Of a stretch of 36,119 bases of DNA, positions 1 through 22,541 are shown piece by piece. The translations under genes were made by a program, and so were the position numbers. The notes under the pieces were generated by a model, which searched no databases, was not told where the DNA came from, and was given only the letters and a program-made list of their open reading frames with translations. The stretch spans positions 1 to 36,119 of the IMG/VR virus record IMGVR_UViG_3300012931_000052. The stretch is one strand, 5' to 3'. How positions within the stretch are numbered: the stretch's first letter is position 1; every line of letters begins with the position of its first letter. This DNA comes from a virus. Its lineage: Duplodnaviria > Caudoviricetes.

Positions 1-7
1 AAATTTT

Positions 8-706
8 ATGGCTACAATTCCAACTTATATGACCAAGAAAGGTGTATTAACCGCTGGTCATGGTATAATCAAAACTGGCACTGCTGCCAGTGAAATTCCG
101 TTTGGGGCTTTTGTAACAAGGGCCGCAGATGGTACAATTAAGGCAACTGTCTGTGCTGGAACCCCCACTTATGACTATCTGGGTGTTGCCGTCAACGACA
201 TGAAGGAACAACGCCCTTACGATGGCTTTTATGCCGCAGGTAAAAAGGTACCTTATGTTGCAACGGGCACCGCCAATGTCATGCTACTCGGTGGACAAAC
301 CGTTGATTCTGGTGACTTTGTAAGGCTTCAATTTGCTTCAACTGCTCTGGGAGCAGGTACCGAGAATACTGGCTTCGTTGTGCCTGAAACTTCCCCTGCT
401 GTAAGGACGGCATATTCTGTAGGTAGGGTCTTGGACGTTGCTGACAGTGGTGCCTCGGCATATAAGCAAAATTTCACTTCCATTAGCAATGACATTGTTA
501 CCTTTGGAAGTTCGACCATCAAGGGATACCTTGACCTGCATGATGGTGATTACCTAGTTCTTGACTCTGATAATCATGCAGAAGTCAATATGGTTGCCGA
601 CGTGAACTATTCCAGTACGGCTATCGAGCTTGTCAAGACTCCACTAGCCCATTCTGGAAATCTGTATGCGTATACCTTGACCCAAGTAGAGATCGAACTG
701 ATTTAG
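8..706 (+). CDS. Probable capsid decoration/cement protein
   Basis: Directly upstream of the major capsid gene; Gly/Ala/Val-rich with the I-P-F-G...G-V-A-V...A-G-x-x-V...G-x-A-x-V pattern typical of head decoration proteins. Confidence 0.65.
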   Translation: MATIPTYMTKKGVLTAGHGIIKTGTAASEIPFGAFVTRAADGTIKATVCAGTPTYDYLGVAVNDMKEQRPYDGFYAAGKKVPYVATGTANVMLLGGQTVDSGDFVRLQFASTALGAGTENTGFVVPETSPAVRTAYSVGRVLDVADSGASAYKQNFTSISNDIVTFGSSTIKGYLDLHDGDYLVLDSDNHAEVNMVADVNYSSTAIELVKTPLAHSGNLYAYTLTQVEIELI

Positions 707-764
707 ATAAAAATATCTAAATCTTATTATATTTTATTAAAAATTATTAGGAGATTAAAATTTT

Positions 765-1694
765 ATGGCTGACACAGGATTACATTATGGTTCCTTTATT
801 CCAGAAGAGGTAGTTACTGCCTGGATAACAACTATTAATGATTATGAATTGAATTACAGACCGGAACTCATCGCTAGGAATATCCTACCCTACAAGGATG
901 TAGGTCCCCAAATCGACATTGATGCAGTAACTCATATCCAGACAACTTCTGGTCGCGCTGGTATCGTGGCTAAAGGTGCCTCACCTGACCCGTTCACCAT
1001 TGCTGCTGGTGTTGAGAAGCATGAGATGTACCAAATCTCAACGGGCTTTTATGTGAATGAGAGAGATCTTGCTAAGACTCAAGGTCCTGTCATGAAGACC
1101 GCTGAAATCAATGAAGCAATGGCCAAGATCCACGCAACCGAAGATTATATCGCCATTAATGGTGATAGCGGTCTCGGCATTACTGGTATTGTTGGAGCTG
1201 CTCATGCCAACACACGTGGCAAGGTACTACCAACCAATGGCACTGCCACTTCAGTTGATGTACCAAATGCTGGTCCGTGGGACAGTTCTGGAGACACCTT
1301 GGATCCTTATGAGGATGTAGTTAATGCCATCAAAATGATGGATCCTAGGTTCAAGCCTTGGGGCATGATCGCGGATAGGGCAACACTATATAACCTGTTC
1401 AAGGTGGATTCTGAGAGGGTGCCTTTTGCCGACTACATTGGCAGTTTGTTTGGAAAAGGCGAGAATGATCGCTCCTGGATGATTGAGTCTCAGTTTACTC
1501 CGACTGGCTACGCATATGTTATTCCTTATTCGCCTCAAGCCGCTGAGTTTGCTGTTTCAACCGAAATTGATGTGGCAGACGACTATCCGAAGGAGAAGGG
1601 CGGAAACTATTGGGTTGAGATCAAGGAATGGTGTAACCCGATTGAGGTTCACAGCCCCAACAGTTTCGTAGAAATCGATACAACTCCCACGTGA
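765..1694 (+). CDS. Major capsid protein, HK97 fold (encapsulin/linocin-like type)
   Basis: 309 aa; AGGAG RBS; 'LIARNILP', 'EDYIAINGDSGLGITGI' and 'DPYEDVVNAI' segments resemble encapsulin-like phage capsid proteins; follows the decoration gene. Confidence 0.8.
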   Translation: MADTGLHYGSFIPEEVVTAWITTINDYELNYRPELIARNILPYKDVGPQIDIDAVTHIQTTSGRAGIVAKGASPDPFTIAAGVEKHEMYQISTGFYVNERDLAKTQGPVMKTAEINEAMAKIHATEDYIAINGDSGLGITGIVGAAHANTRGKVLPTNGTATSVDVPNAGPWDSSGDTLDPYEDVVNAIKMMDPRFKPWGMIADRATLYNLFKVDSERVPFADYIGSLFGKGENDRSWMIESQFTPTGYAYVIPYSPQAAEFAVSTEIDVADDYPKEKGGNYWVEIKEWCNPIEVHSPNSFVEIDTTPT

Positions 1695-1739
1695 AAGTAA
1701 AGAATAATTAAATATTTTTTACTTTAGGAGGAAATTTAT

Positions 1740-2675
1740 ATGGGGAAACCAGCAAAATTTAGTAAATTAACAGGCCCACAAGTTGCATCTTATGCTACAT
1801 TGGACGCGGCATCTGAGGATATGGCCACGGATAGTATCGTCTTTGTGAAGAGTGGTATCGCCAAGAAAGTTACATTTGCGGATGTTGTAGCCGACATGGA
1901 TGGTACTGTAACAAGCACAGGACTGACAAGTACCGACGGTGTTCTGTCAGTAAGCATTGATGGACTTGACGCAAAAGCCATTCCGATTGCCGCAGACTCC
2001 GTAATGATATGTGATAGTGCGGCCACAAATGCACTAAAGGAGTCCACACTTGCAGAACTTGCAATCCCACTCGCTGATACTATGGCCGGTACTGCAAGTG
2101 CAACAGGACTAACTGACTCTAGTGGCGTCTTGACAGTAGCCCCCACTGAGGTTACTGCGGCGGTTGCTGCTGACAGTTTTGTCATCAAGGACGCAACTGA
2201 CAGTAAGGTTCATACTGACACAATAGAAGATGTTGTCGGGTTGATAGCAGGTACTGCAAGTGCGACTGGCCTAACGGCATCTGCCGGTGTTTTGACTGTT
2301 GTTGCCAAGATTGCCCATTTAGAAGCAGCGTTACTTAAACGCGTTGTAACAGTTCCAATGTCTTTTGAGACTGGAGAACAGACTACAACCCGAATTTACT
2401 TTAACAGTAAAGTTACTGTGGATAAAATACGCGGCATTGTTATGAAGGCCATCGCCGGAACAGATAATGGCACTATTACATGCGGTAATTCTACAGGTGC
2501 GTCTACTGCCGGTGTCATTACGGCAACGGCTAGTGACGCACTAAACGTGGAATATGCTGTAAGTCCGAGCACTAACAATGTGGTCCTTGCCGACGGATAT
2601 TATTACTTGACTTCAGCCAAGTCAACCGCTGGCGGAAAGGTACTAGTCACACTAGAAGTAACTGTAACAGCATAA
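1740..2675 (+). CDS. Head fibre/decoration protein with three internal repeats
   Basis: Ala/Thr-rich; repeats MDGTVTSTGLTSTDGVLSV, MAGTASATGLTDSSGVLTV and IAGTASATGLTASAGVLTV; immediately after the capsid gene; AGGAGG RBS. Confidence 0.55.
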   Translation: MGKPAKFSKLTGPQVASYATLDAASEDMATDSIVFVKSGIAKKVTFADVVADMDGTVTSTGLTSTDGVLSVSIDGLDAKAIPIAADSVMICDSAATNALKESTLAELAIPLADTMAGTASATGLTDSSGVLTVAPTEVTAAVAADSFVIKDATDSKVHTDTIEDVVGLIAGTASATGLTASAGVLTVVAKIAHLEAALLKRVVTVPMSFETGEQTTTRIYFNSKVTVDKIRGIVMKAIAGTDNGTITCGNSTGASTAGVITATASDALNVEYAVSPSTNNVVLADGYYYLTSAKSTAGGKVLVTLEVTVTA

Positions 2676-2676
2676 A

Positions 2677-2722
2677 GCAGGATATAACCTAGTTATATCT
2701 TGTTTTATTACTTTATTTTTTA
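2677..2722 (+). terminator. Hairpin plus T-tract terminator
   Basis: GATATAAC-CTA-GTTATATC inverted repeat right after the stop codon, followed by T-rich runs. Confidence 0.5.
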
Positions 2723-2773
2723 CCTGGATTTCATAGGTCTAGGTAAACTCTTATAAAACATCTATGGAGTTTT

Positions 2774-3250
2774 ATGACAAAAATTAATATGTCGGGTACT
2801 AATGTTGGTGCCAAAGCTATTTGTGCTATAGTCGATACAAATGGTACCGTTTTACCTGTTATTGCTATTGATAATGGCGATGGCACTGCCACGTTTAAAG
2901 TTGATGTAAGCAAGAAAAGTAAGGGCACAGTTACTATTGCGCATAATGCTATTACTGGAACGGCCACAAGCGCGGAAGTAGATTGCAGCGGATTTAATAG
3001 CCTACTTGTTCATTGGATTAGTTCTGCCACGGATAAAACCTGGGTTATTTCGATTGTTGGTGCAACCGGAAGCGGATTAACTTTTGTTCCATTGCTTGAT
3101 AAAACAACTGGTTTAGCAGCAAGTGAAATTACTACTGACATAAGCGGATTCTTTGTAATTAGTAACATTCCTGATTATGTAAAAATAGTAGCAACCGAAA
3201 CAGATGATGGTGCGACCGTAACATGTAGAGTCCAGCCATTTAATGCATAA
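2774..3250 (+). CDS. Hypothetical beta-rich virion protein
   Basis: 158-aa ORF with GGAG RBS; Thr/Val/Gly-rich alternating beta pattern. Confidence 0.5.
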   Translation: MTKINMSGTNVGAKAICAIVDTNGTVLPVIAIDNGDGTATFKVDVSKKSKGTVTIAHNAITGTATSAEVDCSGFNSLLVHWISSATDKTWVISIVGATGSGLTFVPLLDKTTGLAASEITTDISGFFVISNIPDYVKIVATETDDGATVTCRVQPFNA

Positions 3251-3266
3251 AGAAAGGGTAATTAAT

Positions 3267-3629
3267 ATGACATTAACATTAAAGTGCCATAAATGTGGCG
3301 AGGAAAAAGAAACTGAATTACATCCAAAAGAATTTGTCTGTAAGAACTGCGGGGCAGTAAACGTAGTCGCTTATGACAACTCTTCCGAAGATAGTGCGGG
3401 TTGTATTCCGCCCACTTCATTTGAGTGGACACTACCGGCAGGTGTCATGGAAGGGCCAACAGGCAAAACTTATGTTACTGCCCAAGGCTCTCATATGACT
3501 AAAGAAGAATACATTGACGCATTCGGCTTAGATCCAGATATGGCCATCAATTGGATGCGAAAGATGGGAGAAGAAGGCAAAGAAGGCTATTTTAATACCT
3601 CTACGCTGGGTAAGAGGAAAAAGAGATGA
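3267..3629 (+). CDS. Zinc-ribbon protein
   Basis: CHKC...CKNC; ATG at 3267 preferred over 3243 because it avoids overlap with the upstream gene. Confidence 0.6.
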   Translation: MTLTLKCHKCGEEKETELHPKEFVCKNCGAVNVVAYDNSSEDSAGCIPPTSFEWTLPAGVMEGPTGKTYVTAQGSHMTKEEYIDAFGLDPDMAINWMRKMGEEGKEGYFNTSTLGKRKKR

Positions 3630-4018
3630 AAGAAATCTTTGTTATATTTTTATTGCTAATGGCTGGGATTGCAGGTGGTATGGATAACTTTAGCAAGGAC
3701 CGGCCCGGTGATGCCATAAAAATAGTATCTTTACCTGACGTAAAGCAATTGTCTGGTACGACCGTGGAATCCCTAATTGAAGTTAGCGCAATGAATCCAG
3801 AATTAGTGAAAGAATCTCGTTGGGTTATGCCAGATATTGGATACATAACCTCTGAAAAGGTTAGTGTCACACAAAACGACAATGAAACTTTGACTTTAGC
3901 CCAGCAAGTATTCTCGACTGAAGCCGTACCAGAATTACCAACTTCAATTGGTAATACATCACCCACAGAAGTATTCAACATTAGTGAAAACAATACAGGA
4001 GGACTAGTTTATCTATGA
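3626..4018 (+). CDS. Secreted or membrane-anchored hypothetical protein
   Basis: Signal-peptide-like N-terminus MKEIFVIFLLLMAGIAGG; ATGA overlap coupling to the upstream gene. Confidence 0.6.
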   Translation: MKEIFVIFLLLMAGIAGGMDNFSKDRPGDAIKIVSLPDVKQLSGTTVESLIEVSAMNPELVKESRWVMPDIGYITSEKVSVTQNDNETLTLAQQVFSTEAVPELPTSIGNTSPTEVFNISENNTGGLVYL

Positions 4019-4224
4019 GACAATTTTTTGTTAAAAAACTAGGCGGCATCCATAAAGCAGATTTTAATGAAGGTTTTGGAGAAAATGAACGACATCAACT
4101 TCTTTTCTTTGAAGGTACTGAGGAAAAGGGACCTTGGTATTTCGAAAATGTCCTAACTGAAGAGAGAAAAGAAAAGGCTATCAAAAACAATTGGATAACC
4201 TTCATGAAGAGACCAATTATTTAG
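4015..4224 (+). CDS. Hypothetical protein
   Basis: ATGA-coupled ORF with AGGAGG upstream. Confidence 0.5.
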   Translation: MRQFFVKKLGGIHKADFNEGFGENERHQLLFFEGTEEKGPWYFENVLTEERKEKAIKNNWITFMKRPII

Positions 4225-4235
4225 GAGTAATCCAC

Positions 4236-4493
4236 ATGGGAATTATTGAAGAAATCGTAGCAAAGGGCCTAACCGAGGCTTGGGGTCTCATGACTCCGGA
4301 ACAGAAGAATGACATCAAGATGGGTATGCTTGCTGGTGAAAAAGGTATCGCTAAATTTAATGCTGTTGTAGCCGATGATCAAGTAGACCCAGAAGAACTT
4401 GAATCTATTATTGTGGAAATTTTAACCGTCTCTGATTCAATGGCTGGTCGTGCCATCCAGGCATATTTGTGGTCCCTGTTTAAGAGTGGTTAG
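4236..4493 (+). CDS. Hypothetical helical protein
   Basis: AGGAG RBS before the ATG at 4236 (MGIIEEIVAK). Confidence 0.55.
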   Translation: MGIIEEIVAKGLTEAWGLMTPEQKNDIKMGMLAGEKGIAKFNAVVADDQVDPEELESIIVEILTVSDSMAGRAIQAYLWSLFKSG

Positions 4494-4748
4494 ATGCTAG
4501 ACTTGGATAAAGACCTCTCAACGAGATATAATTTAACCGTTTATATGTTGGGAGCTGTAATAATAATCGTACTCGCAGTGATGGCACTAAGTGCATTCAA
4601 CATAACGGTACCTGAATTTGTATCCGGTGTCGTTATAATGGGATTCATCACCATGCTCAAAGATGCATATGCTTCGTATTTCAAAGCGCGTGAGGACATC
4701 CAGGAAGCAAGAACAGAAGTTGCAAAAATACAAGCAGAAAAGCTTTAA
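4494..4748 (+). CDS. Holin-like two-TM protein
   Basis: 84 aa, two hydrophobic helices and a charged C-terminal tail; directly upstream of the peptidase. Confidence 0.55.
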   Translation: MLDLDKDLSTRYNLTVYMLGAVIIIVLAVMALSAFNITVPEFVSGVVIMGFITMLKDAYASYFKAREDIQEARTEVAKIQAEKL

Positions 4749-4775
4749 ATTTTTAATTTTTTCCGAGGTGCCTAT

Positions 4776-5513
4776 ATGAAAAAAGCGGTTATCGTTGGGA
4801 TAAATAATTATCCGCAGTATCCCTTGACTGGGTGCGTGAATGATGCTCTGGATTACCAGACGACTTTGTTGGCCAAAGGATTTTCAGTGACTCTAATCAC
4901 AAATTCTCAGGGAACAAAGGCAAACATTCTAAACAACTTACAATATATGGTTAGTAATTCTGTTTCGGGAGATTCTCTAGTATTCGCTTATTCTGGACAT
5001 GGTAGCAAAGTTCCAGACACAAATGGGGATGAACCCGACCAGTATGATGAGGTTTTGTGTCCCATTGACTTCTTCTCAGGTCAGTACATCTCAGATGACG
5101 ATTTGAGGGCAATATTTAGTGGTTTGCCAAGTGGAGTCACTCTGGATGTTTTCTTGGACTCTTGTTATAGTGGAACGGCCACGAGATGCTTGGATCTAGT
5201 TGGCGTAAAGTCGAGGTGCATACCAGGTCCTATAACAAATGGTGCTAAAGCTGCTAGAGTTGTGACCTTGGTCCCTGATTTAAATCATGTGCTGTGGTCC
5301 GGATGTAAAGACAATCAAACCTCCAGTGAGGTCTCGGTTAATGGCGTGGTTCGAGGGGTCTTTAGTTACTATGTTTTGAAGGCAATTAGAATTGGTGGGT
5401 TGAGAGCCTCCTTGATTACTGCCGTTCAGAATGCAGTTGCCAGCAAGGTTGCAAATCAGACCCCCCAACTAGAATGTAGTCAAGCAGAAAGTACCCAGTT
5501 ACCTTTCACTTGA
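4776..5513 (+). CDS. Caspase-family (peptidase C14) metacaspase-like cysteine protease
   Basis: KKAVIVGINNY first strand, LTGCVND, YSGHG (catalytic His), DEPDQYDEVLCPID, DSCYSG (catalytic Cys), SGCKDNQTS and QTPQL; GAGGTG RBS. Confidence 0.93.
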   Translation: MKKAVIVGINNYPQYPLTGCVNDALDYQTTLLAKGFSVTLITNSQGTKANILNNLQYMVSNSVSGDSLVFAYSGHGSKVPDTNGDEPDQYDEVLCPIDFFSGQYISDDDLRAIFSGLPSGVTLDVFLDSCYSGTATRCLDLVGVKSRCIPGPITNGAKAARVVTLVPDLNHVLWSGCKDNQTSSEVSVNGVVRGVFSYYVLKAIRIGGLRASLITAVQNAVASKVANQTPQLECSQAESTQLPFT

Positions 5514-5520
5514 GGTCCAC

Positions 5521-5883
5521 ATGGATGAAATGGGACCGATTCTAACCAAGCTGGGTGAAATGAGTTCTGATATCAAGCATCTTAGGGACGATATGAGCAC
5601 GATTTGCGAGTTCAAAGATGAACTTCAGAAGGTTGCCCAGGAATTTCGGGACTACAAGGAAACCAGAAAGGACCTTCCGATCGAGATATCAGATACTAAA
5701 GAAAAGGTAACTGCTTGTCAGACAAGTTGTCAGCACCATGTTGCAAAGACAGAGGAATATTTTAAGAAAACCGATTATTTAATGACCTGGAGTCATAAAA
5801 TTTCTGGTATTCTTATTGCAATTAACGTGTTGGTTGGTGCAATAATTGTGCTAGTTGAACTAGGCATAATTAAGCCATGGTGA
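5521..5883 (+). CDS. Coiled-coil protein with C-terminal TM helix (XhlA/haemolysin-like architecture)
   Basis: Heptad-rich N-terminus and a hydrophobic C-terminal segment ISGILIAINVLVGAIIVLV. Confidence 0.55.
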   Translation: MDEMGPILTKLGEMSSDIKHLRDDMSTICEFKDELQKVAQEFRDYKETRKDLPIEISDTKEKVTACQTSCQHHVAKTEEYFKKTDYLMTWSHKISGILIAINVLVGAIIVLVELGIIKPW

Positions 5884-6263
5884 CCTACATGAATTTTTAT
5901 GTCCTACTTTTAATTGTACTTTTTTCCTTGATGGTGGTTATTGCTGGATATGCTTTGATTCAGTATAGACAACTTTCTGGTTATATGTTGAAGATCGCGA
6001 TTGTTTTGTGTGTTCTAGTTGGTACAGGAACTGCCCAAGATGATCTTGAACATATATCAGACGGACCAGAAGAAATTACACTGGTGGATGAAAAGCCAAT
6101 TATTCAAGCAGGTGCCATGAAAGAAGCCAACAAAGTCCTGGATGGCTGGGCAGAAGAATGTGCTGTTCAGGCTAAATTTTTACTATTCCTAAATGACAGT
6201 AATGATGGCGTTCCCATGAATAACAGTGTAAACTTAAGTGACAGCAGGATCATTGTGTTGTGA
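5877..6263 (+). CDS. Membrane protein with two hydrophobic segments
   Basis: FYVLLLIVLFSLMVVIAGYALI and IAIVLCVLVG; the true start may be ATG 5889. Confidence 0.55.
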   Translation: MVTYMNFYVLLLIVLFSLMVVIAGYALIQYRQLSGYMLKIAIVLCVLVGTGTAQDDLEHISDGPEEITLVDEKPIIQAGAMKEANKVLDGWAEECAVQAKFLLFLNDSNDGVPMNNSVNLSDSRIIVL

Positions 6264-6341
6264 ATCTTGATGCCGGAAATGAGTGCAGCTAAAAAGAAGA
6301 TTTAAGTTGCACCGTATTGTTTGGGACCTGTATGCTTGGAT

Positions 6342-6482
6342 CTAAAGATTCAATCCAATAGCAGTACACATAAAACCAGTAACAAAGCCTCCAACAAATC
6401 CGACATCTATTCCCTGGCTAGCAAAGCCAAGAATTATAGCAAATGCTACCAGAAATCCAAATATGCCACCTCTAATATTCAT
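6342..6482 (-). CDS. Small 46-aa membrane protein (absent from the ORF track)
   Basis: MNIRGGIFGFLVAFAIILGFASQGIDVGFVGGFVTGFMCTAIGLNL; AGGT upstream; downstream of the 6511..6942 gene on the same strand. Confidence 0.5.
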   Translation of the reverse strand: MNIRGGIFGFLVAFAIILGFASQGIDVGFVGGFVTGFMCTAIGLNL

Positions 6483-6510
6483 AAAAATACCTACCAGATA
6501 GTTGGATGAT

Positions 6511-6942
6511 TTATCCAACTATCGCCGTTGTGATCGTTCCGACGCCGTTTGTCAAGTACACCTTGGTTCCGATTGGGAGTACCTGATTATTTGGTACAGT
6601 AATGGCGTATTTGAAATAGTTAGGCTGAACCTCGTCGAATCCGTCAGTGGCTTCTGGGTATGGGTTTCCAACCAGGACCTCAGTGTAAGGCAACTTGGCA
6701 ACATCTACTGCCTTGTAAGCACTGTTTCCATTAGATTCCTTGGTAATCAAACGGAATCCGCCAATATCGCGGGGTGCTGTACCCAGATTCATGATTGTGA
6801 TGGACGTAGGTGTTGCCTTCATAACGATGTTCGCGACAGCTGGATCCGGCATCCCATCAGAACTGACATCCTCAGCCATTGCGGTCATCATGCTCAACAT
6901 AGCGATCACAAGGATCGCGCCGAAAGTTCCAATTTTAGACAT
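6511..6942 (-). CDS. Secreted or surface protein with signal peptide
   Basis: MSKIGTFGAILVIAMLSMMTAMA signal peptide; GGAGG RBS; own BRE/TATA near 6995-7010. Confidence 0.65.
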   Translation of the reverse strand: MSKIGTFGAILVIAMLSMMTAMAEDVSSDGMPDPAVANIVMKATPTSITIMNLGTAPRDIGGFRLITKESNGNSAYKAVDVAKLPYTEVLVGNPYPEATDGFDEVQPNYFKYAITVPNNQVLPIGTKVYLTNGVGTITTAIVG

Positions 6943-7389
6943 TTTTCTTTTCCTCCAAACGCCTTATCAGGCAAGTACTACTTAGTTTGCTTACTATTTA
7001 AGTCTTTTGGTTCGACTTTTTCTTATCAAAGTCTTAAACCAACAATCACTAATAGTACTTGATAGTATTTAAATTTATTGGTCGAAAGTTACTATATTAA
7101 TTAGTATAAATTTATATAAGTAGAATTTTTCATTTGCTACTTATTGATTTTTAACTAATTTTAACTTATATTATTATTATATATACATTTTATATATATA
7201 GTATTATAAATAGTATATAGTAAGATAATAGAGTAAAATAAGTATTAGTAGACTAATAGTTATAGTAATATGGTAGTTATATTAGGTAAAATAAAAATGG
7301 CCAAAAACTGCTATAAGTAGTAAAAGTTACTATATACGTTCGGACTTACTGACTAATAACGATTTTCAAAAAATAGTATAAGGTACACA

Positions 7390-7539
7390 ATGTCTCGTGG
7401 TTATTTTAGTTGTCCAGACTGCGAACAACTTTATGATGCAGCCAACTGGATGTGTCCGAATTGCTTGGCAAAATATAAGGAGATACTAAAAAAAGAGTGT
7501 TGTAGACGAGAAGAAAATTACAAAAATAATAGTGGTTAG
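7390..7539 (+). CDS. Small zinc-finger protein, 49 aa (absent from the ORF track)
   Basis: MSRGYFSCPDCEQLYDAANWMCPNCLAKYKE...; two CPxC motifs; AAGGT upstream. Confidence 0.6.
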   Translation: MSRGYFSCPDCEQLYDAANWMCPNCLAKYKEILKKECCRREENYKNNSG

Positions 7540-7904
7540 AATTCTGTCCATCTAAAAGTTATCTGTTCTTGCCGACAATTTTCCCCTCGGAAAACAATAG
7601 TCCAAGGCGAGTTGTGTCCCAAACTCCTATATATTCCCTCATACGTGGATTCTGATACGACGCCTTTTCTTCTAGCGATTTCTAGTTTGGCATATATTGA
7701 AATGTGGTCATGGCCTAATGTTCTTGCTAGATGGCCAAGTTCCGATATGAAATAGGATTCATTTCGTTGGCGAGTGACTTCTTCTTGGCGTATCACTGGT
7801 CTATCTACATAATATGTATCCCAACTAGTTGTTACAGTTCCGGACGTATAATAACGCACGCCTTGGATGGGTATATAACCACCTGTAACACCGACTTCGG
7901 GCAT
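7536..7904 (-). CDS. Hypothetical protein
   Basis: 122-aa ORF coupled by a TAATG overlap to the upstream gene. Confidence 0.55.
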   Translation of the reverse strand: MPEVGVTGGYIPIQGVRYYTSGTVTTSWDTYYVDRPVIRQEEVTRQRNESYFISELGHLARTLGHDHISIYAKLEIARRKGVVSESTYEGIYRSLGHNSPWTIVFRGENCRQEQITFRWTEF

Positions 7905-8206
7905 TAGTAGCCACCCACCCGGGAAATATCAGCCATGACAGGCTTGATTGCTGGCTGTGGTTGGGAAGATACTGGCTTCTCTTTTACGATAACTTTTTGT
8001 ATGGGCTTTTCTCTTTCTTTGATTTTCTCCTTTTTGATAGGTGCTTTCTTGGTTTTTTCTTTTTCTTTTATTGCCTGATCACTCACTATTATAGTGTACT
8101 TTGTTTTCTTCTTGGTTATTTCCTTTTTCTGTATGGACTCTACTTGCAGGCGTCCTGCCTGAATTCCTTCTAGTATTATTTGTAGTTCATTATTGTTTTC
8201 TGACAT
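7904..8206 (-). CDS. Lys-rich hypothetical protein
   Basis: AGGAG RBS before the ATG at 8206 (MSENNNELQ); basic low-complexity middle. Confidence 0.55.
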   Translation of the reverse strand: MSENNNELQIILEGIQAGRLQVESIQKKEITKKKTKYTIIVSDQAIKEKEKTKKAPIKKEKIKEREKPIQKVIVKEKPVSSQPQPAIKPVMADISRVGGY

Positions 8207-8208
8207 TA

Positions 8209-8496
8209 TTATTGCTCCTTGATTAAGGTTAATGTAATGAAAGGTTTGGTGTATGTGCAACTTTCTGGAAAATAATATCTCATTGAGATACCACGTGATG
8301 TTGTTGGTATATCTAGTACCCATTCCACTTTCATTGATTTTATGAACGCCTTTCCTCTAAAATGAACGTCTCTATCACTTATTGGTAACATAATGCTACT
8401 ACAATAAGCCGTGTCTGGATGTTTATCCATTATAGACATTAAGTGCTTGAGTTCAACATCTGTTGATGTAAAATTCAATGTGAATTCTTCTGGCAT
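8209..8496 (-). CDS. Hypothetical protein, probably leaderless
   Basis: First gene of a minus-strand three-gene unit; CCAAAAAGTTTTTATA BRE/TATA lies about 25 nt upstream. Confidence 0.5.
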   Translation of the reverse strand: MPEEFTLNFTSTDVELKHLMSIMDKHPDTAYCSSIMLPISDRDVHFRGKAFIKSMKVEWVLDIPTTSRGISMRYYFPESCTYTKPFITLTLIKEQ

Positions 8497-8628
8497 GCTA
8501 CGTTATAACTTTTTCTAGGTATAAAAACTTTTTGGATAACTATTATTTAAATCTTTTTGATTTACCACCATATTTACTTTTACCTATTTATACTTTTTGC
8601 TCGTTGTTTATATTGGTTGTTTAGGCCG

Positions 8629-8645
8629 CCAAAAACTATAAATAC
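8629..8645 (+). promoter_or_regulatory. Archaeal-type BRE-TATA promoter of the amidoligase operon
   Basis: CCAAAAAC-TATAAATA, followed by a GGTGA RBS and the ATG at 8678. Confidence 0.6.
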
Positions 8646-8677
8646 TACCAAGCAAAAGTTGAAGTTGGTGATAAAAC

Positions 8678-10282
8678 ATGATGAGAGAAATTAAAGGAAA
8701 GGCACCAAGGGTTTCTGACAAGAGACAAACCGGAAATGCTGACTGCGTACTTGCTCAGTTTGCAGAAAATCTTATTCCGGTCGTGGAGGAGAGCATTCAC
8801 GCAGTCAAGTGTTATGACAGGATTGAGTCTGCTGATAATCTGGCACGAGATACGATATACGTAGATTGTCATGGTACCATTAATGTAATAGTAATGGACC
8901 AATTCAACGTGAACATTCCAGAAGATTTGCCAACGATGCCTGATGGACTTTTCGAACACCTATCAAGACCCATAGAAGAGACTGAACTGTACTTTATGTC
9001 CAATATGACAGTGAGAACAGGCTCATCAGGACTACCGGCAAAAGTCGCAAAGATCAATAATCATGTAGTGGGTTATTACCTTCCAGACCTTAATAGCTGG
9101 GTAACAACCAATTGGACCTGGCACATCCAGTATATGACCGTGGTCTTGGCATATGCTTGGCCAAAGTTCATTGAAGGTTTTGGAATCAGTTTGGGTAATA
9201 ATTCCCTTGCTTCTGAAAAGAAAGGAGAAAAGGTCAAGAAAATAGAGGTCACCATTGGTTGTGATCCCGAGTTTGAGACCCTAAAGAATGGCAAGGTAGT
9301 ACGAGCTGACACCATCATAAATAGAGATAATGCAGTTACACCTACTGCTGAAATCGGGCTCGATGGGCAGCGAGCTCAAGTGGAAGTTCGTCCAAAACCG
9401 TCTAGTAACCCTGGTAAAGTTGTAAAGAATATCAGAGACCTCATGAAGAAGTTTGCAAAGGACTACAGCAGTGTTGACCTTACTGACAAGGGTAATAACT
9501 ATCCATTAGGTGGTCACATTCATGTTGGTATTGGACAGCGAATTGAAGTTGACCGAGAACTTGGTATGATTCTGGATGACTTTATTGGACGGCCTACCAT
9601 AAATTTGAGTGGTAGTGCTAGGGAAGGTTATAAGAGATTGGCTTCCCAGAGTTCTGAGGCGATCCGGTCCCAGCCACATGGATTTGAATATAGGTCTACT
9701 CCGGCTGCGGTCTTCCAGAATCCCCGGATTGCTTATATTGTGTTTAAGCTTGCGAAAAATTTGTCTGAGAAATACTTCAATCAGGAGACTATTAAGTATG
9801 AAGAGAGACCAACCATCCAGAACTACATAGATGTCGGTGGACTCACGGAAAAACAAGCCACATATTTCATGAAGTTTATCGAGGATTATAAGCCAGAAGT
9901 TTCCCTACGATCTGCCTGGAAGGTAGAAGCAGCGCCAGTGGATCTTACCTTTCAAAATAATATTACTGTGGAGTTTCATGATGAATGGGATCCAATTGTA
10001 TCAAGGGCATTGCAGGAAAGCATTCAGGATGCGGTTATGTCGAATAGGCCTGTAGTTGTTTCGTTCTATGGCCTGAACGAGGACCGAGGAACTGATATTT
10101 GTACACTGCCTTGCTCTGGCTTTAATACAATGTTTGATAATATACCAAAACCCTATATGTCATCAGGGAATGTTCTGAATATTGGTGTGTCAAGGAATAG
10201 AAGAATGGACATGGGTAGTGCTAGAGTAAGGACACTGACAGACACCGTGAGAAATGCCGTCACTAACTTAATGGGAGAATAA
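8678..10282 (+). CDS. phiEco32-like COOH-NH2 ligase type 2 (glutamine-synthetase-like amidoligase), paralog 1
   Basis: IGCDPEF, GLDG...VEVRP, LGGHIHVG and QPHGFEYRS motifs. Confidence 0.85.
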   Translation: MMREIKGKAPRVSDKRQTGNADCVLAQFAENLIPVVEESIHAVKCYDRIESADNLARDTIYVDCHGTINVIVMDQFNVNIPEDLPTMPDGLFEHLSRPIEETELYFMSNMTVRTGSSGLPAKVAKINNHVVGYYLPDLNSWVTTNWTWHIQYMTVVLAYAWPKFIEGFGISLGNNSLASEKKGEKVKKIEVTIGCDPEFETLKNGKVVRADTIINRDNAVTPTAEIGLDGQRAQVEVRPKPSSNPGKVVKNIRDLMKKFAKDYSSVDLTDKGNNYPLGGHIHVGIGQRIEVDRELGMILDDFIGRPTINLSGSAREGYKRLASQSSEAIRSQPHGFEYRSTPAAVFQNPRIAYIVFKLAKNLSEKYFNQETIKYEERPTIQNYIDVGGLTEKQATYFMKFIEDYKPEVSLRSAWKVEAAPVDLTFQNNITVEFHDEWDPIVSRALQESIQDAVMSNRPVVVSFYGLNEDRGTDICTLPCSGFNTMFDNIPKPYMSSGNVLNIGVSRNRRMDMGSARVRTLTDTVRNAVTNLMGE

Positions 10283-10284
10283 AC

Positions 10285-11805
10285 ATGAGAAAACAACTGG
10301 TTGGAAAACATCCAACTATTTCTTCGAATAACCATCACTTGATGGAATGTGCTGCCGACATACTTGAGGATGTTAGTCCTTACTTCAATGCATTAAGATC
10401 GCACTATGATGTGACTTGTGGCTTACAAGAAAACGTAATGTATACCTATCCAACAGTGGACTTGCGTATCAAGATAATTGGAGAAATTGATATAACTGGC
10501 GTTAATGTTCATGACACCATGTTTTATGAGCATAGCAGAATGGATTCTCATGTCAGTGATAGATATTCAGAACCAGCTATCAAGATCAACGTAAATGGTT
10601 ACTTTGCTGGGTGGTACCTGCCAAGAATCAATGTGATTTGTGCTGCAGACTGGACACACGGTTCGGGAACAGTGAGTACGTTCAGACAAGTTTGGCCAAA
10701 ATTGATAACTCTCCTGGATTTGAAAATACTACCAGAAGAAAAAAGAATAAAGGAAGAAAAAATCAAGATTGACAAGATCACCATGGGTTGTGATCCGGAG
10801 TTCGAGCTTGTTAATGGGCAAGGCGACGTAATTTATGCCGGCATGCATATAGTTAGTGACGAAGATGGTAATGGTAATAACCTCGGAGTAGATGGCGCAG
10901 ATGATCAAGTAGAGTTGAGGCCCAGAGCAGGTGATCCTAGACAAGTCGTAAGCAACATCAAGAAGTTGTTCAAGATGTTTTCCGAGCAGTACGGTGAGTA
11001 CAAGCTCAGCGACGAAGGTGACGAATATCCATTAGGTGGTCATATTCATGTAGGTATTGGTAGAAGGTGGAGACCTGATAGTGGTTTAGCCCACCTGCTG
11101 GATGACTTTGTAGGTAGGGCCGTAATCAACCTATCAGGCGAAGCACGAGATGACTATAAGAGGCTGGCTTCTCAGTCTTTGGATGCCATCAGGATTCAAC
11201 CACATGGATTTGAATATAGGAGCCCGCCATCAGCAGTTTTCCAGAATCCTGCCATAACGTATATTACATTAACCCTAGTGAAAAACCTCTGTGAAAAGTA
11301 TTTCCAAGAAGTGCCTTTGGAATATGATAGCAGACCTACTCTCGAAGACTATATGAATGTGGGAGGACTTACCAAACAGCAAGCAAAATACTTTATGAAG
11401 TTTATCGAGGAGTATGAACCAACTAAAAATATAACGGCTAATTGGCACATAACACCGAGTAAGTCTTTTGAACCTGCTACAATCACGGTTATCTTCAGTG
11501 ATAAGTGGCATCCACTTGTAAAAGAATGGATCAATAGGTTTATAAAGGAAAAAGTTAAAGTTAGTTTGCCCATAATCATTAAGTTGCATGGCTTAGGAGA
11601 AAGAAGAGGGCGTAACCTATGCACAATACCGACTGGCAGGACAGCCTTAGTGGAGGATATTCCGCATAAGGTCTGGAATGCGTCTACAAGAACATTACAG
11701 ATTGGTCTGTCGTATAATAGGCGTACAATGGATGGATATAATAATTTATTCGGTATTGCATTTGTAAATGCAATTAGTAAGTACATAAAGGAAAACTGCA
11801 GGTGA
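10285..11805 (+). CDS. phiEco32-like COOH-NH2 ligase type 2, paralog 2
   Basis: MGCDPEF, GVDG...VELRP, LGGHIHVG and QPHGFEYRS motifs; aligns by eye with paralog 1 over most of its length. Confidence 0.85.
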   Translation: MRKQLVGKHPTISSNNHHLMECAADILEDVSPYFNALRSHYDVTCGLQENVMYTYPTVDLRIKIIGEIDITGVNVHDTMFYEHSRMDSHVSDRYSEPAIKINVNGYFAGWYLPRINVICAADWTHGSGTVSTFRQVWPKLITLLDLKILPEEKRIKEEKIKIDKITMGCDPEFELVNGQGDVIYAGMHIVSDEDGNGNNLGVDGADDQVELRPRAGDPRQVVSNIKKLFKMFSEQYGEYKLSDEGDEYPLGGHIHVGIGRRWRPDSGLAHLLDDFVGRAVINLSGEARDDYKRLASQSLDAIRIQPHGFEYRSPPSAVFQNPAITYITLTLVKNLCEKYFQEVPLEYDSRPTLEDYMNVGGLTKQQAKYFMKFIEEYEPTKNITANWHITPSKSFEPATITVIFSDKWHPLVKEWINRFIKEKVKVSLPIIIKLHGLGERRGRNLCTIPTGRTALVEDIPHKVWNASTRTLQIGLSYNRRTMDGYNNLFGIAFVNAISKYIKENCR

Positions 11806-11810
11806 AATTA

Positions 11811-12509
11811 ATGTGTATTATAGCGATTTGTAAGGATCGACCGTTAAGTGCTTGGGAAATTCATAACTGCTTCACGAATAATAGTGACGGCGTAGGCTTT
11901 GCCTATGCACGGGGCGATAAGGTCACGATAAATAAGGGTTATATGACCGAGGAAGCATTCGTTAAGGCCTATGAAGACGTGAATATCTTACCACATGTCG
12001 TGCATTTCAGGACAACGACTAGTGGAGGCGTTAGTCAGGAGCTTTGTCATCCATTTGTTGTGGATGAGCATAGCGAACTTGTTGTCCAAGATGAAGTTGA
12101 GCAACCTGTGCTCTTCCATAATGGGGTGATCTTTGATTGGATGACCCTGACTATGAATATGGTCACATCGGGACAAATCGAGATGCCTAAAGGTCCCATG
12201 AACGACACCAGGATGGCTGCAATTATGGTCGCGACTCTAGGCGATGAAGTCCTGAACTTGCTAAGCGGTAAGTTTGTCCTAGTGGATCCATCTGGAGTAA
12301 TTACAAGATGGGGCTCCTTTGAGAATGAACGTGGCATCCTATTCTCAAATGATGGGTATAAGAGAGTAAGTTATGTATATACCAACAAGAACGCGGGTAA
12401 GTGCAAGGGAGGTGTCGGAACGCACAAAGCCTATAATGATTTCCTGGACAAGTATTATGATGAAGATACTCCGAATAGGAGTTTACCAGGTGGAGGAATG
12501 TGTGAATAA
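11811..12509 (+). CDS. Class II (Ntn) glutamine amidotransferase
   Basis: ATG 11811 after GGTGA gives MCIIAIC (N-terminal nucleophile Cys); NSDGVG, HFRTTTSG, CHPF, HNG and DTR motifs. Confidence 0.88.
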   Translation: MCIIAICKDRPLSAWEIHNCFTNNSDGVGFAYARGDKVTINKGYMTEEAFVKAYEDVNILPHVVHFRTTTSGGVSQELCHPFVVDEHSELVVQDEVEQPVLFHNGVIFDWMTLTMNMVTSGQIEMPKGPMNDTRMAAIMVATLGDEVLNLLSGKFVLVDPSGVITRWGSFENERGILFSNDGYKRVSYVYTNKNAGKCKGGVGTHKAYNDFLDKYYDEDTPNRSLPGGGMCE

Positions 12510-12680
12510 AATCAGAACTAAATTTAACCTTTTTTATAGCATGACTTTATATAGTATTAACACTAATAAGAGTATATGTTAGATTTATGGTGTAAGCGGA
12601 CCTGGAAAGCCAGTGGGAGAAGTGTGTCCGGAATGGAGGTGAAGGTGTACTTTAAAAATAATATTTTTAAAAAAAAGTAT

Positions 12681-12980
12681 TTAATCATTTATTACTAATA
12701 ACCTAGTACCACACATATTGCACTTGTAGTGAGTTCCTATTAACTCGCCTTCAACTCGATCTTCGCTTACTTTGGCGAAGTTTCTTACCGTCCCGTGATA
12801 GTTCTTACTACCTTTGAGACAAATTGGACAACATGGTATTTTGCCACCGTTTTGGTGATCAAACATCGACTGTTCTTGTACTAAGTTACCATCCTCATCT
12901 TTATCGAACATCTTCATTACATTTTCACTAATGGAATTTTGCGTGTATAGTTTTGCTAATTGGTTTAAACTTCCTGTCAT
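12681..12980 (-). CDS. Zinc-ribbon protein in an antisense cassette
   Basis: CPIC...CNMC; GAGGTGA RBS and its own promoter. Confidence 0.6.
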   Translation of the reverse strand: MTGSLNQLAKLYTQNSISENVMKMFDKDEDGNLVQEQSMFDHQNGGKIPCCPICLKGSKNYHGTVRNFAKVSEDRVEGELIGTHYKCNMCGTRLLVIND

Positions 12981-12985
12981 ATTAA

Positions 12986-13031
12986 TTCACCTCACTAACT
13001 ACTAGTACTTCTGAGAATATATAACTTACGG
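12986..13031 (-). promoter_or_regulatory. 46-nt promoter/RBS unit, copy 1
   Basis: Ungapped match to 18281..18326 and 31085..31130; on the minus strand reads BRE-TATA-AGTACTA-GAGGTGAA. Confidence 0.75.
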
Positions 13032-13061
13032 TTGAAAATAAGAAAAGTTTCATAAAAAAGT

Positions 13062-13790
13062 TTAAATACAAAGTTCATGGATCTTGCTGACAAGTAAGTC
13101 TACCTTGCGTGGGACTAATCCAGGAGCACTATTGATCTCAAAGATCGTTGACTTGGTTCCGCTTGGTGTTTGGATAGTAGCGCAATCTACGGCAGCAAGA
13201 TCAAGTCCGCACTGGTTGACGGCATCTCTGGCTGCTCTCTTCAAATCAGTAGGAAGTGATGCAACCCGGACCCACCTAAAGAAACAACCTGCCTGATGGT
13301 TTCTGATGAGGATGTTAGGTGTAGGACATTCTTTCAAACTTGCCTCGATGATCCTATCCTTAAGCAAAAACAACCTAAATTCATCGATTTTTTCAACCTT
13401 TTCCTGGATGTAATGTCCTGCTGGATCGAACCTCCTTAGTTCTTGTGGGGTATTTACAACCCAGAAGAACTTACCCTGAAAATGGGTGTTTTTGCGCACG
13501 ATTACAGGAAACTGGATATCACCTTGTAGGGCTTGGTCCCAGGAGATTAATTTAGGCGTCGGGATATTATGCTCCATAAGGAGTTTCTTGCACCTGGGCT
13601 TGTTAGAAGAGGTCCTAACGGCGTCTAGCCGATTAATAATTGCTCCGTCTTCTGGATCAGGTAGAGATGCGTTTCCATAACGTAAGACTATACCTTCCCC
13701 TCTGATACCTTGTTCACTATAGTCGGTTTGTAATGCTCTAGCTAGTGCTCGACCTGTTGGCCTAGCCTTTCTGCAACCTAATACTGTCAC
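13062..13790 (-). CDS. ATP-grasp ligase (RimK/YheC-like)
   Basis: SNK...IPTP, FPVIVRK..H.QGK, YIQEKV...EFR, IRNH, CGLDLAAVD and FEINSAPGL motifs; GTG start after AGGAG. Confidence 0.88.
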   Translation of the reverse strand: MTVLGCRKARPTGRALARALQTDYSEQGIRGEGIVLRYGNASLPDPEDGAIINRLDAVRTSSNKPRCKKLLMEHNIPTPKLISWDQALQGDIQFPVIVRKNTHFQGKFFWVVNTPQELRRFDPAGHYIQEKVEKIDEFRLFLLKDRIIEASLKECPTPNILIRNHQAGCFFRWVRVASLPTDLKRAARDAVNQCGLDLAAVDCATIQTPSGTKSTIFEINSAPGLVPRKVDLLVSKIHELCI

Positions 13791-13814
13791 TTAATTCACT
13801 CCTACTCGTTACTT

Positions 13815-14156
13815 TCATAGATCAACTATAAATGCATTTAGGTTAAACTTTGTTGCTTGTTTGATCATATTCTGAGTTCCCTGACTATTTGGAAATCGGA
13901 ATGCAACTAGAGCATCTGCATATTTTGCCATTTCTCGGTTTCTGATCGGGCCTGCTGATTTACCATATGTGGTCCACTTAGCAGGAAATTTTACTATTGG
14001 GATGGCGTGTTCCAGTGCCCATCTCTCCCCGAGGGTGTCTGCTCCACTAGCACAGCCTGATACAACTGTCGTGATTTGCCAGGGAACATCTAGCATATGG
14101 CGGCAGAGTAACTCATAGTTCGTGAAGTTTCTTGACCCAGCAATAATTGTTATCAT
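13815..14156 (-). CDS. SLOG-superfamily protein (YspA-related/DUF2493)
   Basis: IIAGSRNF, VVSGCASGAD, FPAKW..YGKSAGPIRNREM and SQGTQNMI motifs. Confidence 0.85.
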   Translation of the reverse strand: MITIIAGSRNFTNYELLCRHMLDVPWQITTVVSGCASGADTLGERWALEHAIPIVKFPAKWTTYGKSAGPIRNREMAKYADALVAFRFPNSQGTQNMIKQATKFNLNAFIVDL

Positions 14157-14204
14157 GTTAAGTTAGTTTTAGTTCTGCTTCGATAAATAGTTTTTGGTAA
14201 GCAT

Positions 14205-14240
14205 ATCGTAAAACACCAAGTTTTACCTTCCAATATGATT
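14205..14240 (+). promoter_or_regulatory. Putative late promoter/activator site, copy 1
   Basis: ATCGTAAAACACcaagTTTTACCTTCCAATATGATT, repeated at 19489 and 31140. Confidence 0.7.
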
Positions 14241-14266
14241 ACTAAATTCAATTAGGGGAATCTTGA

Positions 14267-14425
14267 ATGACTTTTAAGGTCTTATTATCAGACGCACTAG
14301 ATACGGACGGTGATAATATTGTTGACAAAGTTGCTGTAAGAGAAGCAGATTCTCTTCCTACGGCTCCAAGTGATGGCGAAATAATACGATCAGATGGAAA
14401 ATTATACATTGCAATTAATATTTAG
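14267..14425 (+). CDS. Small 52-aa fibre-like protein (absent from the ORF track)
   Basis: MTFKVLLSDALDTDGDNIVDKVAVREADSLPTAPSDGEIIRSDGKLYIAINI; AGGGG RBS; C-terminus resembles that of the next gene. Confidence 0.6.
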   Translation: MTFKVLLSDALDTDGDNIVDKVAVREADSLPTAPSDGEIIRSDGKLYIAINI

Positions 14426-14445
14426 TGAAATTTTGAGGGAATTTT

Positions 14446-14823
14446 ATGGCAGTAACATGGAAAGAAATTGCATATAAAGATGATGTGGCTACGTTGAGTG
14501 ACACTGCTCCTAGTGATATTGGAACTTCTGCAGCAGCAGGAAATGGTACAGCAGCTGCTAGATACAACCACGTACATGCACTAGGATCAGGCACAGTAGA
14601 TGGATCAACAGTTGAACTAAATTCTGGTGCCATCAGGATAAAAGATGGCGGTGTAACTTCGGCTAAATTAGCATCTTGGTCAGCAAATAGGAATTGTGCG
14701 GGTTATCAGGCACTAGATCTGGTTGTCCATCAGTCTTCGTCCGCGCCGGAAACTCCGGTCGTGGGCAAACTATGGCAAGATTCTGATGACCAGAAATTGT
14801 ATATTTGTACGAGCGCGGCTTAA
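14446..14823 (+). CDS. Short fibre/decoration protein
   Basis: AARYNHVH, IRIKDGGVTSAKLA and SSAPETPVVGKLWQD..KLYI motifs, as seen in phage fibres. Confidence 0.6.
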   Translation: MAVTWKEIAYKDDVATLSDTAPSDIGTSAAAGNGTAAARYNHVHALGSGTVDGSTVELNSGAIRIKDGGVTSAKLASWSANRNCAGYQALDLVVHQSSSAPETPVVGKLWQDSDDQKLYICTSAA

Positions 14824-14859
14824 ATTTAAGTCCATTCAGTTTAGAGGCAAGGAAAATCA

Positions 14860-15117
14860 ATGGCAAAGATAGATTTAGAAGCACAAGTCTCCTCTCTCCT
14901 AGCATGGAAGGACCGGCAAGAACAGCAACAGGCCGATCGACTCGTTGAAATGCGAAATACTATTGTAGAGGTATTTTCAGAAAGGCATGCCACCGTAACC
15001 GAGATTCAAACAGTCTTGGAAATGGTCAAACTTGACATGCTATCTGAATTTGTATCCTCTCAGAAAGAGAGGGCTCGAATTGCCGCAAAGGAATATCCTG
15101 CCCAAATCAAGGAGTAG
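14860..15117 (+). CDS. Coiled-coil hypothetical protein, possible fibre chaperone
   Basis: Charged helical 85-aa ORF between fibre-like genes. Confidence 0.5.
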   Translation: MAKIDLEAQVSSLLAWKDRQEQQQADRLVEMRNTIVEVFSERHATVTEIQTVLEMVKLDMLSEFVSSQKERARIAAKEYPAQIKE

Positions 15118-15120
15118 AAC

Positions 15121-15351
15121 ATGACCGCTACGTGGAAAGAGATTCTAAAAGGGGCAATCAGCACCGGAACATCAGAGGGCACTGGGGCAGATCAATCAAT
15201 CGCTCATGGTCTAGGTGCGTCTCCGAATCTAGTTTCCATTGTGCCTACTGCAAGCGGTACATCTGTGACGGCTCTTTATGTCGATTCGACTAATATTCAG
15301 GTGACTGTGACAAGTGGCAAAGCATTTGGCTGGATGGCGGCGGTGCTTTAA
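15121..15351 (+). CDS. Small beta-rich fibre-tip-like protein
   Basis: IAHGLGASP motif; N-terminus MTATWKEI matches that of 14446. Confidence 0.55.
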   Translation: MTATWKEILKGAISTGTSEGTGADQSIAHGLGASPNLVSIVPTASGTSVTALYVDSTNIQVTVTSGKAFGWMAAVL

Positions 15352-15849: not shown

Positions 15850-15855
15850 TTAAAA

Positions 15856-18019: not shown

Positions 18020-18035
18020 AAAAATAAATTAAATA

Positions 18036-18275
18036 TTAATATTCTTCTTCTCGGTCAATACAGTCATCATATTCTTTCCAAGAATCCAGACCGCATAATT
18101 CGTGCATGTACTTCGCGGCCTGTAGTCCTGTATCGAAGTATTGGCCCGCTACGTAATATTTTCCAGTGCTAGGAGAATATCCAGCCCATAATGAGCCATC
18201 TTCGCCTCTTGGAAGTTCAAAACTGATCACATGGGTCTGTTCAAGTTTCTTTGTCATTTCTTTAATTGATAGCAT
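18036..18275 (-). CDS. Hypothetical protein in an antisense cassette
   Basis: 79 aa; preceded by the 46-nt promoter/RBS unit. Confidence 0.6.
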   Translation of the reverse strand: MLSIKEMTKKLEQTHVISFELPRGEDGSLWAGYSPSTGKYYVAGQYFDTGLQAAKYMHELCGLDSWKEYDDCIDREEEY

Positions 18276-18280
18276 ATTAC

Positions 18281-22539: not shown

Positions 22540-22541
22540 AT

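Follow-up and report, generated by a model that had tools for sequence, protein, structure and literature searches.

Background

Little is settled about the way in which tailed viruses escape from archaeal cells without pseudomurein. According to a 2024 review the holins of archaeal viruses have remained elusive, with none functionally characterized (PMC10791045), and of 129 archaeal double-stranded DNA viruses surveyed in 2025 only 10.9% yielded detectable lytic proteins (PMC12596118). A block of small genes in the virus record IMGVR_UViG_3300012931_000052 bears on this question. The record, analyzed here at its full length of 36,119 bases (the window), is linear, rated 26% complete, and encodes capsid, neck, baseplate and tail-sheath genes detected in Pfam and PHROG scans. 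Positions 3626-6263 are filled by six co-oriented open reading frames (ORFs), by our count, around a gene for a 245-residue protease of the caspase-like C14 family, all situated 3' of the major capsid gene. The original prediction, made from the sequence alone, had placed this protease in the endolysin slot of a holin/XhlA-like cassette and proposed that it opens the protein wall of an archaeon.

We used sequence profile searches, structure modeling and comparative genomics to ask what such a protease might do at this position. We consider it probable that the protease has a role in lysis, whether released from the cell or acting within it as a switch. Our tentative preference, which we hold at somewhat less than an even chance, is for an accessory lysis protease that would be released through a holin/XhlA-type lesion and would cut non-amyloid proteins of the envelope.

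Results and discussion

The window encodes a stand-alone metacaspase

The C14 gene product matches PF00656 with an E-value of 2e-26 (93.5 bits against a cut-off of 21.4), and its AlphaFold model (pLDDT 82) recovers metacaspases as the top structural matches. In Foldseek searches the plant metacaspase AtMC9 (9n3e) was aligned with a TMq of 0.78 and an E-value of 2.6e-19, with TMq values of 0.76-0.78 across AtMC9 and GSU0716. The His-Cys dyad (H75 and C130) is invariant across 29 close homologues, and the dyad together with the acidic motifs is retained in all 21 viral clade members examined. No signal peptide is present in the protein, the maximum 11-residue hydropathy of its N-terminus being 0.54. 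The predicted stand-alone protease with an intact dyad and no export signal is thus borne out.

For TbMCA2, the S1 pocket residues are given as Cys92, Asp95, Ser156 and Asp211 and the calcium site as Asp173, 189, 190 and 220 (PMC4357240). These roles were carried over by motif and by spacing from the dyad, which makes the correspondence a putative one. All four S1 counterparts are present (Table 1), and since the acidic residues D23 and D128 are among them, cleavage after Arg or Lys is predicted. Such a preference had been proposed before, from the acidic segment DEPDQYDE; the preference stands as a prediction, but its proposed source does not. DEPDQYDE aligns with DEEDGMDD of yeast Yca1, is retained in cellular and phage C14s alike, and is best read from these alignments as the family-wide acidic (calcium) loop and not the specificity pocket. 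We rejected it as the specificity determinant, a role that would sit in the two S1 aspartates. Three of the calcium-site counterparts (D91, D107 and D108) are present and the fourth Asp is replaced by R137; of 35 viral and cellular members in the alignment, 33 have Arg or Lys at this position. The loop bearing R137 is modeled with pLDDT <50.

At three loci (L228, L238 and L324) the C14 protein belongs to a divergent subclade in which the dyad is intact but C20 is replaced by T, P or H, and D23 by N in two of them; because these S1-region residues are changed, specificity may differ in this subclade. The L238 copy is also without the p20-p10 linker. A second, short C14-like piece occurs in two complete relatives of 145-148 kb (G005, C1:45631-45783; G007, L260:10009-10239). 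In phylogenetic trees the viral C14 clade is separate from the chromosomal C14s of Methanothrix. Given these separate branches we rejected a recent capture from the host chromosome, with the support for the viral clade being only 92/52.

The protease is embedded in a conserved but exchangeable set of membrane genes

Searches of viral and metagenome contigs yielded, after removal of duplicates, 24 closely related loci, with downstream sequence available in 22 and upstream sequence in 22; because the loci are kin, the counts that follow overstate their independence. A gene for a helical protein with one transmembrane (TM) segment lies directly 3' of the C14 gene in 21 of 22 loci, L176 being the exception (20 were identified by script and L228 was added by hand). 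The TM segment is at the C-terminus in 18 of these proteins and at the N-terminus in 3, and they fall into four families that BLAST does not align with one another. When loci were retrieved via the downstream gene itself (L324, L325 and L329), a C14 gene was found ahead of it in three out of three. On the other side, a small hydrophobic gene precedes the C14 gene in 15 of 22 loci and belongs to eight families. Three of the 15 are below the hydropathy threshold and were still counted because the L168 copy matches a PHROG holin (phrog_34682, E 1.3e-3); the L325 copy has no match. The linkage of viral C14 genes to TM genes is hence conserved as had been proposed, but the holin-like gene is not the tightest partner, a position that falls to the downstream coiled-coil-TM gene. 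As a control, seven viral genomes were scanned for a gene of at least 150 residues followed by one of 80-160 residues with a single C-terminal TM segment: the pattern occurs in 7 of 300 co-oriented pairs, all seven being the C14 pair, and in none of the other 293.

The slots are subject to exchange. Between the window and its relative G008, most structural genes are 80-94% identical and the 4494 gene 87%, whereas the C14 proteins are only 32% identical and the downstream gene comes from an unrelated family, which we read as a C14-for-C14 swap within the slot. With unrelated small TM genes exchanged in the same slots, the block behaves like a lysis cassette.

The tight downstream linkage also bears on an alternative in which the protease stays inside the cell as a lysis switch and sets the moment of membrane failure by binding or clipping either a host membrane protein or 5521, at its cytoplasmic coiled coil. 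A protease without an export signal, linked more closely to 5521-type genes than to holin-like ones, would fit such a switch, as would the GAGG ribosome site, which in 15 of 17 junctions overlaps or directly adjoins the stop codon of the protease gene (TGAGGT for 5521 in the window). Likewise, the 5521 family alignment (A2) retains invariant K32 and R49, amphipathic or TM N-termini are seen in several C14s of phages, and 5521 could stand in for these as a tether, and the orthocaspase MaOC1 is described as cleaving the product of a neighboring gene (PMC7935541). However, 5521-type genes occur without a C14 gene (G569, L338, L336 and L313), overlap of stop and ribosome site is common in operons, and it would be odd for a specific substrate to come from four families that are unrelated and whose TM arrangements are of two opposite kinds. 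We regard the switch, the nearest rival of our preferred reading, as unlikely, though of appreciable weight.

In most loci the C14 gene follows the capsid gene at a distance of a few genes, as would also be expected if it matured virion proteins of the head or tail. However, in G006 (capsid 84% identical), which of the relatives with a pre-capsid region is the closest, a separate gene is encoded ahead of the capsid gene. As PHROGs gave the pre-capsid genes no name, its fold was used instead: the conserved domain best matches the T4 prohead protease gp21 (Z 6.9, rmsd 3.5, 124 residues aligned; next match 4.8), with Foldseek also placing gp21 on top, although weakly (E 0.06, model pLDDT 60). This separate gp21-like gene makes head maturation by the C14 protease unlikely. 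Moreover, one complete relative has no C14 gene, and the swap left the C14 proteins with 32% identity against 80-94% for the structural genes. Virion maturation of either kind is in our estimate highly improbable.

Proteins encoded beside the protease

The block genes are co-oriented after the capsid gene as originally described (Table 1), and hydrophobic-segment analysis recovers the two-TM protein 4494 and the coiled-coil protein 5521 on either side of the protease. As for further membrane or secreted neighbors, the 3626 and 5889 products agree with the original prediction; 4015 and 4236 are without TM segments.

Table 1. Coordinates of the C14 block, the capsid gene and the proteases of a related provirus (window positions unless a contig is named)
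Feature	Coordinates	Strand	Remarks
Major capsid protein	765..1694	+	PHROG 264, E 3.6e-6; homologues in methanogen proviruses; basis for host inference
Signal-like, likely secreted protein, 130 aa; variable upstream part	3626..4018	+	hydrophobic residues 4-22; no family
Soluble protein, 69 aa	4015..4224	+	start overlaps preceding stop; no TM
Soluble acidic protein, 85 aa	4236..4493	+	abuts 4494 gene; no TM; 88% identical in G008
Two-TM protein, charged C-terminal tail, 84 aa	4494..4748	+	TM ~14-32 and ~37-55; holin-like by anatomy and position only
Stand-alone metacaspase (peptidase C14B), 245 aa	4776..5513	+	dyad H75/C130; S1 C20, D23, S73, D128; calcium-site D91, D107, D108, R137
Coiled-coil protein, one C-terminal TM, 120 aa, XhlA-like	5521..5883	+	alignment A2; ESM Atlas
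Two N-terminal hydrophobic segments and acidic tail (DEKP motif), 124 aa	5889..6263	+	alignment A3, 16 loci
Papain-family C1 proteases, G018	L299:15749-16687, L300:3029-4420		one with C-terminal TM, one fused to Gp80 fibre domain

The 4494 family has 58 homologues, none with a Pfam domain, and a 4494-type gene adjoins the C14 gene in the window, L238 and L011. A search with the family gave nine loci, of which seven were viewed (five directly and two via genomes); a C14 gene is adjacent only in L330 (G008). Chromosomal homologues (L357-L361) have surroundings that are not viral, and two of these homologues adjoin TPR-like genes. The 4494 protein would be the holin of the block.

In the ESM Atlas, 5521 is placed with tailed-virus clusters (0.94) and with a cluster in which 43% of the members carry the XhlA domain PF10779 (0.93). 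This is a language-model resemblance only, as no match to the PF10779 profile was obtained at E 0.05, and we infer an XhlA-like helper without classing it as XhlA. Its own profile retrieves 38 proteins among 1.84 billion.

The probable start of the last gene is 5889, with GGTGA upstream of the ATG. Counterparts in some relatives have a signal peptide alone ahead of the acidic tail, and the protein likely faces outside, where it would be an accessory. Its family profile matches 11 of 16 genome sets and found nothing in 105 host-family genomes, and searches by family and by fold gave the protein no match; a narrower alignment retrieved only three loci that were already known. At the upstream end, the 3626 protein has a clear homologue in the close relative G008 and a weak one in G009 (E 2.6e-4), and the 4015 protein is 84% identical in G008 and has no match in the other genomes compared.

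Beyond the block, an opposite-strand gene with a signal-like N-terminus (6511-6942) is common to the window and G008 only, and an AT-rich non-coding stretch (6950-7390) with a 13-nt exact repeat (7085 and 7323) is a possible control region. A repeat search over 6200-8700 found none linked to the cassette, and a promoter and terminator scan, designed for bacterial promoters, gave chance-level results.

Conventional lysins and alternative proteases in related viruses

The original prediction reported no muramidase, amidase or Pei-type enzyme in the window. This agrees with our Pfam and PHROG scans, in which no lysin family was found among the 54 ORFs of the window; since the record is only 26% complete, this absence carries no weight and was dropped as evidence. 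More telling are four relatives rated 93-100% complete (G005, G007, G009 and G010), in which the C14 protease is the sole Pfam peptidase and no Pfam-recognizable peptidoglycan or pseudomurein hydrolase was found among the ORFs scanned (146 of 160 in G005, 148 of 148 in G007, 67 of 68 in G009 and 57 of 57 in G010); the scans covered ORFs of at least 90-100 residues lying between the 20-kb cut points, and most ORFs are without a family. A conventional lysin elsewhere in the genome was thus not recognized in these viruses. Neither the 54 window ORFs nor the scanned relatives have a Pei-type or pseudomurein-binding Pfam match.

Other proteases occur in relatives. No C14 gene is present in 80 kb of the Methanotrichaceae provirus G018, and its post-capsid block encodes two papain-family proteases close to a coiled-coil-TM gene. 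In G006, a minus-strand gene (L257:14707-15690) encodes a 327-residue protein with a signal-like N-terminus and a C-terminal M10 domain (PF00413, E 2.3e-9). Its Ser/Asn/Gly-rich region looks sheath-like by eye, making it a candidate secreted, sheath-targeted protease, and no homologue was found in the other genomes compared. Secreted proteins that also look sheath-like by eye are encoded at L338:1664-2512, L336:777-1457, L287:1598-2359 and L368:8489-9295, where small membrane genes follow a few genes later, with a C14 gene nearby at one of these loci (G015) and none nearby at the other three.

Distant viral C14 proteases and endolysins

Beyond the close loci, we took the best 80 of 302 confirmed viral matches. 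The 66 distant ones among these were reduced to 57 by clustering at 80%, and 55 were retained after setting aside two without an assigned ORF. Peptidoglycan hydrolases make up 7 of the 104 immediate neighbors of at least 90 residues and none of 80 genes at least 4 kb away (Fisher p 0.017). They include amidase 2 and 3, lysozyme, GH25 and muramidase domains, and an eighth hydrolase lies two genes from its C14 gene. The endolysin-linked C14s require three changes on the tree, at least two of them by starred branches. Several distant C14s have holin-like neighbors, some carry lipoprotein-type or TM N-termini (L215, L237, L179 and L189), and 13 of the 55 form a clade including giant-virus records, where an endolysin is not expected. 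In bacterial phages the C14 protease is an addition beside the endolysin. C14 matches were found in 1 of 50,697 GenBank phage records.

This enrichment beside endolysins argues against a protease that acts on host defence, or breaks down host proteins at a late stage of infection, and whose place in the operon is incidental. Viruses of 56-148 kb keep the gene at a fixed position amid membrane genes, which also speaks against such a function, as does the separation of the viral clade from the chromosomal C14s of Methanothrix. It would nevertheless be in keeping with the missing export signal, the optional nature of the gene, the presence of chromosomal C14s in the hosts' own family and of other counter-defence genes in relatives, such as Tad6 in G005. 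On balance, a counter-defence function seems quite unlikely.

A likely Methanothrix-type host

Among 105 Methanotrichales genomes the capsid protein finds homologues in 4, with a best score of 218 bits; among 201 Methanosarcinales it finds them in 7 (best score 145 bits), and among 251 Methanomicrobiales in none, the groups being labeled after their center genomes. Three Methanotrichaceae genomes contain DNA that matches the window at 66-75%; the matching regions are proviral, with tail sheaths 48% and 39% identical, and one lies within a 3.6-Mb contig. The PCNA of the relative G569 is 66-71% identical to those of Methanotrichaceae, as against 48% for Methanosarcina and 42% for Methanoregula. 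By these comparisons the host is likely a member of the Methanotrichaceae of the Methanothrix type, in line with the protein-walled methanogen originally envisaged. Matching of CRISPR spacers did not contribute: window segments 1-20000 and 16200-36119, compared with 105 Methanotrichaceae genomes, gave no in-array match among the nine short-match loci inspected, in what was a weak test with two candidates scored per genome. As no spacer match was found, the host assignment goes no further than likely. The wall of this host presumably consists of a sheath and an S-layer, not pseudomurein. The sheath of Methanothrix is amyloid (PMC11576556), and the relatives' records are not among the rows listed of the host table in that study.

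A putative lysis mechanism and the evidence against it

We propose that the small membrane proteins 4494 and 5521 would breach the host membrane and that the signal-less protease would exit through the resulting lesion, where calcium outside the cell may switch it on. Predicted to be Arg/Lys-specific, it would then loosen the protein layers of a Methanothrix-type envelope, the probable targets being S-layer or other non-amyloid envelope proteins and not the amyloid sheath itself. The protease would be optional in this scheme and would enhance release.

Several observations weigh against it. No holin family in Pfam or PHROGs matches 4494, which has distant, non-viral chromosomal homologues in 5 of 105 Methanotrichaceae genomes; a TM gene ahead of the C14 gene is missing from 7 of the 22 loci, and some 20 kb separate the two genes in G011, where a 4494 homologue is present. 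The complete 54.7-kb genome G569 keeps the holin-like, coiled-coil-TM and third genes and has no C14 gene, nor any Pfam peptidase in the 58 of its 59 ORFs scanned; two fragments (L336 and L338) similarly have the holin-like and coiled-coil-TM genes and no C14 gene. The secreted M10 metallopeptidase of G006, which also carries a C14 gene, would be a competing wall enzyme. Among the distant viral loci, 48 of 55 are without an endolysin as immediate neighbor. Finally, most Methanothrix viruses are described as carrying sheath-like proteins, which have themselves been proposed to serve egress (PMC11576556).

On this reading the protease would be an accessory, optional enhancer of release and not a sole lysin. 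An essential lysin is not supported, given the complete G569 without it and the bacterial phages in which it stands beside an endolysin instead of replacing one. Taken further, G569 and the related proviruses without a C14 gene would suit a module in which the membrane genes alone effect lysis or exclusion and the protease is a dispensable passenger with some unrelated minor role. However, the dyad and acidic motifs kept throughout the 21 clade members, and the slot that the C14 gene retains through swaps, argue against a passenger, an explanation to which we give very little credence.

A broader, speculative possibility, about which we are more doubtful than hopeful, is that caspase-family proteases constitute an undescribed class of viral lysins. 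In viruses of sheathed or S-layered methanogens they would be the sole wall-cutter, exchangeable with papain-type proteases and metalloproteases, and in bacterial phages they would be an extra beside the endolysin, acting on protein layers. If so, a holin-opened, calcium-exposed trigger would tie the metacaspase family to virus-driven cell death. A lysis role would also give the metacaspases of prokaryotic viruses a concrete job, which the endolysin link in bacterial phages suggests to be wider than the archaea. With its three or four small genes and a single catalytic cysteine, the block makes such a role accessible to experiment in the viruses that infect Methanothrix-type methanogens.

Other genes of the window and its relatives

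A peptide-modification cluster common to G006 and G008 occupies window positions 8678-13790 and comprises two phiEco32-like COOH.NH2 ligases, a class II glutamine amidotransferase and a RimK-like ATP-grasp enzyme. Two genes of the ADP-ribosyltransferase fold (PF03496) are inserted among the structural genes (16530-17396 and 26438-27145); several further genes of this kind occur in G006, among them one with a fused MuF domain. The large relatives G005 (L275:15493-19476) and G007 (L266:17718-19904) encode a bacterial-type DNA polymerase III alpha together with an archaeal-type PTH2.

Comparison with known systems

A full-text literature search, judged on abstracts and with bioRxiv supplements outside its scope, returned no publication on a C14 protease in a lysis cassette. 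The word 'caspase' is absent from the main texts of PMC10791045, PMC9796341 and PMC12596118; as for PMC11576556, section 11 describes no C14 cassette, and its four supplementary files do not contain the word.

The protease shares its fold, His-Cys dyad, acidic S1 pocket and acidic loop with metacaspases and orthocaspases of the C14B group (yeast Yca1, 4f6o; TbMCA2, 4afr; AtMC9, 9n3e; Geobacter GSU0716, 3bij; Microcystis MaOC1). It differs from them in having no prodomain or extra domains, a very short linker and Arg in place of the fourth calcium Asp, and in being encoded by a tailed virus among membrane genes.

The holin-endolysin-XhlA cassette of Bacillus PBSX and SPP1 is a late operon with a small two-TM gene, a signal-less enzyme and a gene for a coiled-coil protein with a C-terminal TM segment. 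The block in the window has the same layout, with the slots filled by unrelated genes. Unlike in Bacillus, its enzyme is an optional cysteine protease and not a peptidoglycan hydrolase, the host is an archaeon, and an extra, outward-facing acidic protein follows.

PeiW and PeiP are pseudomurein endoisopeptidases of the psiM viruses. Such enzymes, including PeiR of phi-mru, are likewise viral peptidases proposed to open a methanogen wall, their route across the membrane being unknown (PMC10791045). The C14 protease belongs to a different protease family, is encoded in a window without Pei-type Pfam matches, and has an inferred host without pseudomurein.

Closest in biological setting are the sheath-like (SH-like) proteins of Methanotrichales viruses (Medvedeva et al. 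2024, PMC11576556), which concern the same host group and the same problem of egress. That study also names amyloid-degrading viral proteases as a possible route. The SH-like proteins themselves are described there as secreted, non-enzymatic decoys, unlike the signal-less protease of the window, which would act by cutting envelope proteins.

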